Shown here piece after piece: positions 29,316 to 35,475 of a DNA stretch of 64,000 nucleotides (within the stretch, counting starts at the first letter, position 1; each line of letters begins with the position of its first letter). Origin of the DNA: Candidatus Eiseniibacteriota bacterium (GTDB lineage Bacteria; Eisenbacteria; RBG-16-71-46; CAVPCR01); assembly GCA_963702435.1 (NCBI GenBank), contig CAVPCR010000005.1, forward strand, positions 145,721 to 209,720. The letters run 5' to 3'. The notes beneath the pieces were generated by a model. The model did not search any database and was not told where the DNA came from. It saw nothing but the letters and a program-made list of their open reading frames with translations. Made by a program: the position numbers and the translations under genes.

Positions 29316-29768
29316 GTGAGTCACGGCATCTCACGCGCCGCGCAGTACGCGGTGCGCACCCTCGTCCACCTCGCGCTCGAGCGTGATGCAGCGGCCTCCC
29401 CGGTCAGGGACATCGCGGAGGCCGAGGGGATTCCGCCGCACTTCCTGGCCAAGCTCGTCGGGAAGCTGGCGCGGGCCGGCCTCGTCGATGCGTTCAAAGG
29501 CCCCGGGGGAGGCATCCGCCTGGCCAAGCCCCCGACCCGGATCAAGCTCATGCAGGTGATCGAGGCCGTGGACGGCCCCGCATTCCTGTCCGCGTGCTTT
29601 CTCGGACTTCGCTCGTGCTCGGACGAACAGCCCTGCGCCATGCATGAGAACTGGAAGGCGCTGCGCACGCGGCTGGCCGCCGACTTCGATCGGATCACGA
29701 TCGCCGAGCTCGCCGCGTCGGCGCGACGAAACCCGCCGGCCGCGGGCGGATCCGGCGCGGCGCGGTAG
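29316..29768 (+). CDS. Rrf2-family (IscR/NsrR-like) transcriptional regulator with a three-Cys Fe-S ligand pattern
   Basis: N-terminal wHTH ([13 protein letters not shown]...[27 protein letters not shown]) and a C-x6-C-x5-C cluster ([14 protein letters not shown]). Confidence 0.8.
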
Positions 29769-29862
29769 AGCCCACGTTCCGGTTGCCGCCGCGCCCCCGA
29801 GGTCCTACCATCGACCCCTTGCCCACCACGACCCCGTTCACCCTGTTCGACTTCACTCTACG

Positions 29863-32800: not shown

Positions 32801-35475
32801 CGTTCCGCGAGCCGGTGGCCGCGGCGGAGCCGGCGGCCCCCTTGCCCGCCGCGCGCGCGGCGGCGCGCGCTGGCCGGCGCGGTCCCGACTTGATCCAGGT
32901 GCGCGGCGCCCGCCAGAACAACCTGCGCAATGTGGATATCGACATCCCGCGCGACCGCCTCGTCGTCATCACCGGCCCGAGCGGGTCGGGAAAATCCACG
33001 CTCGCCTACGACATCCTGTTCGCGGAGGGGCAGCGCCGCTACATGGAGAGCCTCTCCGCCTACGCGCGCCAGTTCGTGACCCAGATGCCGCGGGCCGATG
33101 TCGAATCGACGCGCGGCCTGCCGCCGACCGTGGCCATCGAACAGCGCGTGTCGCGCGGCGGGCGGAAATCGACCGTGGCCACGGCGACCGAGATCTACCC
33201 GTTCATGCGGCTCCTGTTCGCGAAGAGCGGAACGCCGCATTGCCCCGACTGCAACGTGCCGATCGAGCCGCAGACGCGCCGGCAGATCCTCGATGAGATC
33301 CGGCGCCGCTACCCGGGACGGCGGGTGCAACTCCTCGCCCCGGTCGTTCGCGATCGCAAGGGCTACCACAAGGACGTGCTCGTGCGCCTCCGGAAGCTCG
33401 GCCTCGAGACGGCGCGCGTCGATGGAACGATCGTGCCGCTCTCGCCGCTACCCAAGCTCGATCGCTACCGCGAGCACCGGATCGAGGCGGCCGCCGGGAG
33501 CGCCGTGGTGCAGAACAAGGAGGCGCTTCGCGCCGCGGTCGACGCGGCGCTCGACCTCGGCCGGGGCGTGCTGCGCGTAGTGCCCTCGCGCGGGCCGGAG
33601 GTCACGCTCTCCGAACGGCTCGCCTGCCCCGAGTGCGGTCTCGGGATCGACGACCTCGATCCGCGCGCGTTCTCGTTCAACTCGCCGCTCGGCGCCTGCC
33701 CGCGCTGCACGGGACTCGGCGTGCTTGGCCACCCCGAGTCCGATCCCGATGCCGATCTCGACTGGGAGGACGCCGGGGGCGAGGCGGAGACCGGGGATGG
33801 GACCGGGGATGGGGCCGGCGATGGCAACGGAAGCGGCGCCGGCGGGACGGCGGGCGGCCCCTGTCCCGAGTGCGGTGGCCGGCGGCTCCGCCCTGAATCG
33901 CTCGCCGTGCGCTTCCGCGAGCGCTCGATCGCCGACCTGACGGCGCTCACGGTGGCCGAGGCGGAGCGCTTCTTCTCGAGCTTGAAGCTCGGCCCGCGCG
34001 AGACGGCGATCGCCGGGCCGCTCGCCGCCGAGATCGCCTCGCGCCTGCGCTTTCTAAAGGAGGTCGGCCTCCCCTACCTCACGCTCGACCGCAGCGCCGA
34101 CACGCTCTCGGGCGGCGAGGCGCAGCGCATCCGGCTCGCCGCACAGCTCGGGTCGAACCTGCGCGGCGTCCTCTACATCCTCGACGAGCCGACGATCGGA
34201 CTCCACGCGCGCGATCACGAGAAACTGCTCAAGACACTCGTCGCGCTCCGCGATCGCGGCAACTCGGTGATCGTGGTCGAGCACGACGAGGAGACCATCC
34301 GCGCCGCCGATCAGATCATCGATCTGGGACCGGGCGCCGGTCGGAACGGCGGGCGCGTGGTGGCGCAGGGGACGCCGGCCGCGGTGGCGCGCACGCCGGG
34401 CTCCCCGACCGGGGCATACCTCAAGCGTCGGCAGCAGCCGCCGCCGGCGCCACGCCGGATCCCGAGCGGCAACTCGATCCGCGTCCTCGGCGCCAGCGAG
34501 CACAACCTGAAGGAGATCGACGTCGAATTCCCGCTCGGCGCGCTGACCTGCGTCACTGGCGTCTCCGGATCGGGAAAATCCACGCTCGTCCGCGATGTCT
34601 TGTACCACGCGCTTCGGCACGAGCTCGGACTCAAGGAGGGCCGCGCGCCGGGCCGCCACCGCGGCCTCGTCCTCCGCGGCGAGGTGAAGCGGGTCGCCGA
34701 GGTGGACCAGTCCCCGATCGGGAAGACCCCGCGCTCGGTGCCGGCCACCTACGTCGGCATTCTCGCCGAGATCCGCCGCCTTCTCGCCCAGACCCCGACC
34801 GCGCGGGCGCGCGGCTACAGCCAGAACCGCTTCAGCTTCAACGTGAAGGGCGGCCGCTGCGAGACCTGCGCCGGCCAGGGCCGGGTCAAGATCGAGATGA
34901 ACTTCATGCCCAACGTGTACGTCGAGTGCGACTCCTGCGGCGGGCGGCGCTTCAACGCGGAGACGCTCGAGGTGGTATGGAGCGGGCGCTCGATCGCCGA
35001 CATCCTCGAGCTGACGGTCGCGGAGGCGGAGGACGCGTTGGCCGCGGTGCCGGCGGTGCACCGGCGCCTCGCCGTGCTCGAGGAGATCGGGCTCGGCTAT
35101 CTCACGCTCGGCCAGCCGTCGAACACGCTATCGGGCGGCGAGGCCCAGCGCATCAAGCTCGCCGCGGAGCTCGGGAGCGCGACCGGCGGCCGCACCGTGT
35201 ACCTCCTCGATGAACCGACGACCGGGCTCCATCTCGGTGACACCGAGATGCTCCTCGCCTGCCTCCATCGGCTCGTCGATCGCGGCGACACGGTCATCGT
35301 CATCGAGCACAACCTCGAGTTCATCGGCGCCGCCGACCACGTGATCGACCTGGGGCCCGAGGGCGGCGAGGGCGGCGGGCGCGTGGTCGCCGCCGGCCAC
35401 CCCGGCGAACTGGCGGGGATGGGGAAGAAGTCGCACACCGGGGCCGCCCTCGCCCGGCACTTCGGGCGCGGCTGA
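29863..35475 (+). CDS. tandem-fused double UvrA-like ABC ATPase (two complete UvrA units, four NBDs, about 1870 aa)
   Basis: Each half has two Walker A motifs ([23 protein letters not shown] / [10 protein letters not shown]), zinc-finger Cys pairs ([21 protein letters not shown] / [20 protein letters not shown]) and ABC signatures (LSGGEVQRV / LSGGEAQRL). The halves are joined by an about 60-aa Ala/Arg linker. Confidence 0.85.

Follow-up and report, generated by a model that had tools for sequence, protein, structure and literature searches.

The 64,000-nucleotide stretch of Candidatus Eiseniibacteriota DNA analyzed here (contig CAVPCR010000005.1, positions 145,721–209,720, referred to below as the window; G+C content about 70%) contains a gene that encodes two UvrA units fused in a single chain. 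The fused gene probably represents an ancient and widespread class-I-type UvrA paralog whose product would function as an obligate asymmetric pseudo-dimer, sensing damage for UvrB-dependent excision repair; we place the probability of this reading at about 0.6. The noteworthy feature of the gene is not rarity, but the complementary divergence of its two halves, which is observed throughout the family to which it belongs.

As held by the original prediction, which was made from the letters of this DNA alone, a single open reading frame (ORF) encodes both units: the frame is uninterrupted from 29644 to 35475, with zero stops, and both halves score as UvrA. The earliest in-frame ATG past the stop codon of the preceding rrf2 gene lies at 29863 (MSKTSD...) and gives a protein of 1870 residues. 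The same MSKT start is found in L086, a relative on a metagenome contig with 95% identity. The gene and its landmarks are as follows.

29863..35475, + strand: gene for the fused double UvrA (1870 aa and a stop codon)
29863..29943, + strand: N-terminal tail, aa 1–27, basic and Arg/Ala-rich, predicted disordered
29944..32712, + strand: half 1, aa 28–950, a complete class-I-type unit with NBD-I and NBD-II (the nucleotide-binding domains), zinc modules Zn1–Zn3, UvrB-binding domain and insertion domain
30289..30696, + strand: half-1 UvrB-binding-type domain, aa 143–278, divergent
30772..31083, + strand: half-1 insertion domain, aa ~304–407, kept; Pfam PF17755 match at aa 311–377
32713..32886, + strand: inter-half linker, aa 951–1008, 58 aa, Ala/Pro/Arg-rich
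32887..35472, + strand: half 2, aa 1009–1870, a class-I-type unit without insertion domain
33238..33639, + strand: half-2 UvrB-binding domain, aa 1126–1259; best Pfam PF17760 stretch at aa 1137–1239
33331–33426, + strand: LLAPVV... segment, aa 1157–1188, inside the half-2 UvrB-binding domain
33715..33858, + strand: Gly/Asp (G/D)-rich low-complexity loop, aa 1285–1332, between the two CxxC pairs of half-2 Zn2
33789–33824: three tandem copies of the 12-nucleotide unit GACCGGGGATGG, coding for part of the half-2 G/D loop

The whole protein scores above the cut-offs of both NCBIfam UvrA equivalogs (NF001503, 2136 bits; TIGR00630, 2077 bits), and both halves match the UvrA of Bacillus stearothermophilus (Bst; 2r6f), with E-values of 1e-256 for half 1 and 7e-272 for half 2. 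Half 1 forms a gapless end-to-end alignment on Bst UvrA residues 2–945. Half 2 covers 2r6f chain residues 22–303 and 421–952, which correspond to native residues of about 2–283 and 401–932, the chain numbering including a 20-residue tag; the gap in half 2 thus spans native residues 284–400. The insertion domain of Bst UvrA is taken here to comprise residues 287–398 (Pakotiprapha et al. 2008), and with these boundaries the stretch absent from half 2 is, as judged from the alignment, the insertion domain. In its place, half 2 carries about 37–48 residues of G/D-rich sequence. The insertion domain of half 1 is 93 residues long, 30% identical to that of Bst UvrA, and confidently folded.

All four NBDs carry an intact Walker A motif, Q-loop, signature, Walker B motif and H-loop, as they do in the family consensus, and all six zinc modules (Zn1–Zn3 in each half) keep their CxxC pairs. 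A UvrB-binding domain of 137–139 residues is present in both halves, where Pfam PF17760 matches two stretches. The half-1 domain is 22% identical to its Bst counterpart and the half-2 domain 28%; in half 1 the canonical (L)APxVxxxKGxH motif is absent and the sequence TFPLDARNT is found in its place. These features bear on several parts of the original prediction. The linker, expected at about 60 residues, has 58, and the segment of the second unit that had been likened to a UvrB-binding element, LLAPVV..., does lie within the UvrB-binding domain. Its description of the two units as complete is borne out for the four ATPase sets and the six zinc modules, but not for half 2, which lacks the insertion domain. 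Divergence had been assigned to the insertion domain of the first unit; that domain is present and folded, and it is instead the UvrB-binding domain that is most divergent.

When the halves are modelled separately with AlphaFold, using alignments of 41 sequences, half 1 is obtained with a mean predicted local distance difference test (pLDDT) score of 86 and half 2 with a score of 85, both with a predicted template-modelling score of 0.79. The UvrB-binding domains of both halves fold at a pLDDT of about 82–94. Values below 50 are observed for residues 1–21 of the N-terminal tail, a similar basic version of which is present in L086 and in L001, an Eisenbacteria metagenome-assembled genome (MAG), and for residues 1290–1330 of the half-2 loop.

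Both halves are of the class I type rather than class II. The original prediction had proposed aligning each half with UvrAs of both classes, and both prove closer to class I: in phmmer searches, half 1 and half 2 score 858 and 908 bits against Bst UvrA, 610 and 592 bits against Deinococcus radiodurans UvrA2 (2vf7), and 473 and 464 bits against Ecm16 (7sh1). Structural comparisons agree with these scores. The top Foldseek match is 2r6f_A for half 1 (by E-value) and 3uwx_A for half 2, both of them Bst UvrA chains, and the two halves in turn reach template-modelling (TM) scores of 0.90 and 0.81 to 3uwx_A, the UvrA chain of a UvrA-UvrB complex, whereas the scores to class II folds are lower (0.67–0.71 and 0.61–0.67). 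Class II UvrAs are without the UvrB-binding domain and Zn1 (PMC9328131, PMC5128194). Neither of these defining losses is seen in the fused protein, in which both elements are present in both halves.

The class II proteins DrrC, Ecm16 and UvrA2 nevertheless provide a model for a different function, that of a UvrB-independent DNA-binding ATPase that clears intercalators or deals with non-covalent or special lesions. Membership in a paralog lineage, the missing canonical motif in the half-1 UvrB-binding domain and the low identity of both such domains to Bst UvrA (22–28%) would suit such a function, as would the ability of class II proteins to operate without UvrB/C/D (PMC9328131). It is made unlikely by the UvrB-binding domain and Zn1 of both halves, which are confidently folded and kept under constraint, by the preference of sequence and fold matches for class I, and by the neighboring genes, which are housekeeping genes and include no biosynthetic gene cluster. 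The same observations speak against the drug-resistance ATPase that had originally been suggested.

Matches to an anti-phage defence system are also obtained. PADLOC assigns the whole protein 546 bits for mad3 and 237 bits for mad8, components of the MADS system, which might point to a role in defence. However, an E. coli UvrA control scores 342 bits for mad3 and 124 bits for mad8, compared with 246 and 307 bits (mad3) and 111 and 133 bits (mad8) for the two halves of the window protein, and no PADLOC matches are found among the neighbors tested, nor is a methyltransferase gene or any other mad gene seen next to the fused gene. Since the control scores higher per unit, the mad3 and mad8 matches reflect generic UvrA homology, and a defence role is highly improbable. 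As an observation on the models themselves, PDLC04135 (mad3) and PDLC04140 (mad8) flag any UvrA unless the genomic context is checked.

The fused UvrA is not rare: it belongs to a very large family, the members of which already carry annotations in public data. A protein search returns more than 120 clusters of 1760–1960 residues, with 51–88% identity and 97–100% coverage, named "excinuclease ABC subunit UvrA" where the source supplies a name. A scan with one genome per species yields at least 563 confirmed genome loci with the fused architecture, from many phyla, so that the gene is not the atypical one that had first been supposed. The closest among the matches listed are Candidatus Eisenbacteria MAGs (79% and 74%). 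Listed hosts include Eisenbacteria, Binatia, Acidobacteriota, Desulfobacterales, Syntrophales, Kiritimatiellia, Thiodiazotropha, Burkholderiales (Burkholderiaceae/Comamonadaceae) and very many Verrucomicrobiota, Akkermansia, Prosthecobacter and Methylacidiphilum among them. The same two-half layout is found in all 50 members dissected. The linker between the halves varies from 14 to 79 residues (median 23) and is unconserved, except that the Eisenbacteria clade has a VYRLD motif. The possibility that misassembly or a frameshift has joined two neighboring uvrA genes, which nothing but the unusual length would suggest, can be set aside with near certainty: the same continuous two-half ORF, at 44–88% identity, recurs in hundreds of independent assemblies, which also answers the original concern about a stop or frameshift between the halves. 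In the open literature searched, no account was found of a fused, tandem or double UvrA family, of a "class III UvrA", or of complementary divergence between halves.

The relationship of the halves to canonical UvrA was analyzed with a set of 100 halves (50 members), the UvrAs of Bst and E. coli, and four canonical ones from Verrucomicrobiota, over 823 well-aligned columns. Identity between canonical UvrAs, which come from three phyla, is never below 58.5%. Mean identity is 57% among first halves and 57% among second halves, 50% between second halves and canonical UvrAs, 47% between first halves and canonical UvrAs, and 44% between first and second halves (47% inside the window protein). Neighbor-joining trees resolve three clades, one each for first halves, second halves and canonical UvrAs, all with 100/100 bootstrap support, and neither half groups with the six canonical sequences in the tree. 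Such separation into three clades argues that the fusion is ancient and that the family is a paralog lineage; within this small canonical sample, the fusion appears to be a single event, with both halves in a lineage distinct from orthologous UvrA. A recent tandem duplication of a canonical uvrA was considered and rejected: first and second halves resemble one another less (44–47%) than either resembles canonical UvrA, and both kinds of half are monophyletic across phyla.

In four genomes of Chthoniobacterales/Verrucomicrobiota, a separate canonical uvrA of about 950 residues, 55–57% identical to Bst UvrA, is found 6–7 kb from the fused gene and on the opposite strand, and the fused gene is clearly a paralog in these genomes. 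The two uvrA types are loosely clustered in all four.

L014:207–3125, minus strand: canonical uvrA, upstream of and divergent from fused uvrA
L017:870–3737, minus strand: canonical uvrA, same arrangement
L026:1207–4059, minus strand: canonical uvrA, same arrangement
L072:419–3271, minus strand: canonical uvrA, same arrangement

This coexistence bears on the alternative that the fused gene is the sole housekeeping UvrA of its organism and not a specialised paralog, as in Chlamydia, where to our knowledge the double-length uvrA is the only one. Such a role would overlap with the paralog reading on mechanism and differ from it on redundancy alone. Both halves pass the UvrA equivalog cut-offs, no second UvrA is found in the examined parts of the 64-kb window, and the neighbors are ordinary metabolic genes whose order is conserved in Eisenbacteria, all of which would fit a housekeeping gene. 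There is also a precedent for the length in Chlamydia trachomatis, in which the CT333 uvrA has 5,361 bp, encodes 1,786 residues and bears the annotation "UvrABC system protein A" (PMC6686042). On the other side, both halves fall outside the canonical clade, the fused gene coexists with a canonical uvrA in the four genomes above, and the window protein falls below the cut-off of the Chlamydia double-UvrA model NF001885/PRK00635 (1809 positions), with 1148 bits compared with 3054. Five other family members score 1054–1258 bits with this model, and the best stretches reported, those of the window protein included, match only its first half. Double-length UvrA is therefore a known kind of protein, and the present family is not the curated Chlamydia one. 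A sole housekeeping UvrA in the source genome is a real, though less likely, possibility.

The two halves differ in a consistent manner across the family. The half-1 insertion domain is present in all 50 members, with 90–106 residues. In half 2, an insertion domain of 83–98 residues is kept in one large group of Tectomicrobia-, Binatia- and Acidobacteriota-like sequences and is shrunk to 0–37 residues in the Eisenbacteria group, in Syntrophales/Desulfobacterales, and in a group of PVC (Planctomycetes–Verrucomicrobia–Chlamydiae), Burkholderiales and Thiodiazotropha sequences. Loss of the half-2 insertion domain occupies at least three separate positions in the tree; losses in half 1 number zero of 50. 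The UvrB-binding domains differ in the opposite direction: of the residues that are invariant in canonical UvrB-binding domains, first halves of the family keep 38% and second halves 53% (39% and 55% in the window protein), and the pattern AP..RKG.H...R.DG...L.R..EH is nearly invariant in second halves. Among close relatives, both UvrB-binding domains diverge at an equal rate (for example, 73/74% and 65/68% identity); the half-1 domain is thus being maintained rather than degenerating. The loop standing in for the half-2 insertion domain shows free drift among the same kind of relatives, from 14 to 37 residues and from 64% down to 22% identity; the 12-nucleotide repeat at 33789–33824 suggests that the loop changes in length by replication slippage.

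A structural framework for this asymmetry is provided by UvrA of Mycobacterium tuberculosis. As visualized by cryo-electron microscopy of the UvrA2UvrB1-DNA complex, the UvrA homodimer turns asymmetric on damaged DNA, with a "recognition" and a "support" insertion domain, and the first UvrB binds the protomer whose "support" insertion domain is released (PMC11985968). A protomer cannot dock UvrB while its own insertion domain binds DNA, and a second UvrB loosens the UvrA dimer interface (PMC11985968). In the fused protein, the two halves would pair intramolecularly in the manner of the homodimer subunits, and it is reasonable to regard the fusion as a stand-in for the UvrA homodimer. Linkers as short as 14–15 residues in some family members would require the relevant termini to lie near each other in the dimer. 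Such a pseudo-dimer would scan DNA, bind lesions and hand over to UvrB for UvrABC excision. Half 1 would grip the DNA through the sole insertion domain, and half 2 would offer the more canonical and always accessible UvrB dock, with no insertion domain to displace; the tether would block complete dissociation of the halves, and all four ATP sites look active from their motifs. With such complementary divergence of its halves, the pseudo-dimer would be asymmetric permanently.

Upstream of the fused gene lies an Rrf2-family regulator gene on the same strand, which the original prediction had also noted, together with its C-x6-C-x5-C motif.

29272..29292, + strand: ATTATTCTTGACCAACGAGTC, a conserved non-coding block that lies upstream of rrf2 and may serve as promoter and Rrf2 operator
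29316..29768, + strand: Rrf2-family transcription regulator, 150 aa, GTG start; Pfam PF02082, E 8e-35
29769..29862, + strand: rrf2-uvrA spacer, 94 nucleotides, no terminator-like site

The regulator lies directly upstream, across the 94-nucleotide gap, and the motif forms part of a ligand set, Cys94-x6-Cys101-x5-Cys107-x2-His110, in which none of the 20 closest orthologs shows a substitution; across 120 homologs, each Cys is retained in 105–107. With the NCBIfam models, the regulator matches at the superfamily level only and remains below the equivalog cut-offs of IscR (84 versus 208), SufR (68 versus 111), RirA (61 versus 193), CymR (56 versus 195) and NsrR (50 versus 182). From these sequence features, the neighbor appears to be an Rrf2 protein of the Fe-S type, without clear assignment to a subtype.

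The gene order rrf2-uvrA-acyl-CoA dehydrogenase-pdxR-pdxS is common to the window and L001, and the rrf2-uvrA pair is also found in L086. In L001 the rrf2-uvrA spacer is merely 16 nucleotides long. A comparison of the three genomes shows a single conserved stretch, with the consensus ATTnTTGACCnnnGAGTC, in otherwise diverged rrf2 upstream regions, and no conserved block in the rrf2-uvrA spacer. In the window this block (29272–29292, the TTGACCnnnGAGTC block) contains a -35-like TTGACC at 29279–29284 and GAGTC at 29288–29292; its palindrome, GAC-N6-GTC, is weak, and a consensus sigma-70 scan finds no site in it. Co-transcription is the simplest reading, since the two genes are on the same strand with gaps of 94 and 16 nucleotides, no terminator lies between them, and the conserved block is found only upstream of rrf2. 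The uvrA gene is thus probably co-transcribed with the Fe-S-type Rrf2 gene in this Eisenbacteria lineage, and its expression may respond to iron, redox or nitric oxide (NO) status.

Other members of the Rrf2 group are found in different surroundings. Orthologs at 71–74% identity have neighbors other than uvrA, and a 59% ortholog shares a 4.58-Mb genome with a fused UvrA (P0008) without being adjacent to it. A 60% ortholog sits between ric/ytfE-nnrS and the gene for a 1795-residue DEAD/MZB helicase. Both ric/ytfE and nnrS are classical NO-stress genes, and this context lends mild, indirect support to a role in nitrosative stress. At the loci L083:8034–14134 and L084:7812–11917, the ortholog is located directly upstream, on the same strand, of the helicase gene (DEAD/Helicase_C/MZB), and a cluster with ric/ytfE (ScdA_N plus hemerythrin), nnrS and usp runs divergently from it; these loci represent a second case in which this Rrf2 group adjoins a possible DNA-repair enzyme. 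The redox or nitrosative control that had been suggested for the fused gene thus receives some indirect support, and the linkage of rrf2 to uvrA is shallow.

Several observations weigh against the overall reading of a UvrB-dependent asymmetric pseudo-dimer and its regulation. Adjacency of rrf2 and uvrA is confined to close Eisenbacteria relatives whose Rrf2 proteins are at least 77% identical (the window, L001 and L086), and no Rrf2 gene lies within 10 kb at any of the 78 other fused-uvrA loci. The search for Rrf2-box palindromes that had originally been proposed yields none of convincing length: inverted-repeat scans of 29130–29900 return only GC-rich, chance-like pairs. In the tree that separates the family from canonical UvrA, the canonical side comprises just six sequences, of which one order supplies four, and the fused gene could be the sole UvrA of its source genome. 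The models cover the two halves separately, so that intrachain pairing is a prediction, and pairing between halves of different chains is possible. The half-2 UvrB-binding domain is merely 28% identical to that of Bst UvrA, with UvrB contacts judged at the domain level, and neither uvrB nor uvrC is found in the scanned parts of the 64-kb window.

The pseudo-dimer reading can be carried further, although the following version is tentative and its odds are low. The asymmetry of the UvrA2-UvrB complex might be built into the chain, with half 1 as a permanent "recognition" protomer and half 2 as a permanent "UvrB-loading" protomer, such that a single UvrB would be loaded in a fixed geometry and the assembly would not fall apart into monomers during hand-off. 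In Eisenbacteria, nitrosative or oxidative stress might switch this machinery on together with the Fe-S Rrf2 regulator, and it would then complement canonical UvrA as a branch of excision repair, either as a back-up or for particular lesions.

An open question (PMC11985968) is how symmetric UvrA2B2 turns into a pre-incision complex that is asymmetric and has just one UvrB, placed on the damaged strand. The fused family bears on how UvrA asymmetry directs UvrB loading: both of its "protomers" are locked into a single polypeptide, and mutations can be placed in either half alone, an option that a homodimer does not offer. Cultivable genera (Akkermansia, Prosthecobacter and Methylacidiphilum) are among the hosts of this large family. 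For annotation, it should not be presumed that a fused gene is the housekeeping uvrA. The gene, initially framed as a rare oddity controlled by Rrf2, is much less special than first thought, and the drug-resistance and Rrf2 angles are weak.

Elsewhere in the window, a minus-strand ORF at 36464–38371, with a weak HNH-endonuclease match, separates the acyl-CoA dehydrogenase gene from the pdxR-like gene. L001 and L002, although syntenic in other respects, lack this ORF, which may be an insertion; a perfect tandem repeat of 3.1 copies of a 21-nucleotide unit lies inside it (36792–36857). A second repeat, 7.3 copies of the 18-nucleotide unit CCCGCCGCCGAGCGCGAC at 38581–38713, is found just upstream of the GntR-aminotransferase (PdxR-like) gene at 38875. 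On the other side of the fused gene, the region 22800–29300 has an unusually strong A-over-T skew on the plus strand (0.14–0.20) and long ORFs without Pfam or PADLOC matches. A polytopic membrane protein encoded at 27261 to about 29234 (minus strand) has no counterpart in L001, and the ORF at 25026–27248 (minus strand) matches L001 over short stretches only. Three very large consecutive ORFs of about 1243, 1246 and 952 residues occupy 6961–17128 (minus strand) and are followed by genes for an Omp28/FlgD-Ig protein (17129–19099) and an F5/8 type C domain protein (19382–22861).

Structural and sequence comparisons relate the fused protein and its neighbor to several known systems. Similar to the class I UvrAs of B. 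stearothermophilus (2r6f/3uwx), E. coli and M. tuberculosis, each half comprises two ATP-binding cassette modules, Zn1–Zn3 and a UvrB-binding domain. The main differences are that the fused protein has two units per chain where class I UvrA is a homodimer, that half 2 is without the insertion domain, and that the half-1 UvrB-binding domain is without the canonical motif. With the class II proteins D. radiodurans UvrA2, Ecm16 and DrrC, the fused protein shares its status as a UvrA paralog that is able to coexist with canonical UvrA and that has altered accessory domains. The alterations themselves differ, however: class II proteins lose the UvrB-binding domain and Zn1, whereas the fused protein loses the insertion domain, and in half 2 only. 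The Chlamydia-type UvrA is also a protein of about 1800 residues with two units and is annotated as UvrABC subunit A, but the fused family belongs to a lineage different from that curated equivalog or represents a very divergent one. The Rrf2 neighbor, in turn, is reminiscent of the Fe-S Rrf2 regulators IscR, NsrR, RirA and RsrR in its winged-helix Rrf2 fold and in the three Cys residues clustered near residue 100. The C-x2-H that follows its third Cys is similar to the Cys3His ligation in IscR. In contrast, its spacing, C-x6-C-x5-C, is not the C-x5-C-x5-C of IscR and NsrR, and its gene lies beside uvrA rather than beside isc/suf or hmp genes.

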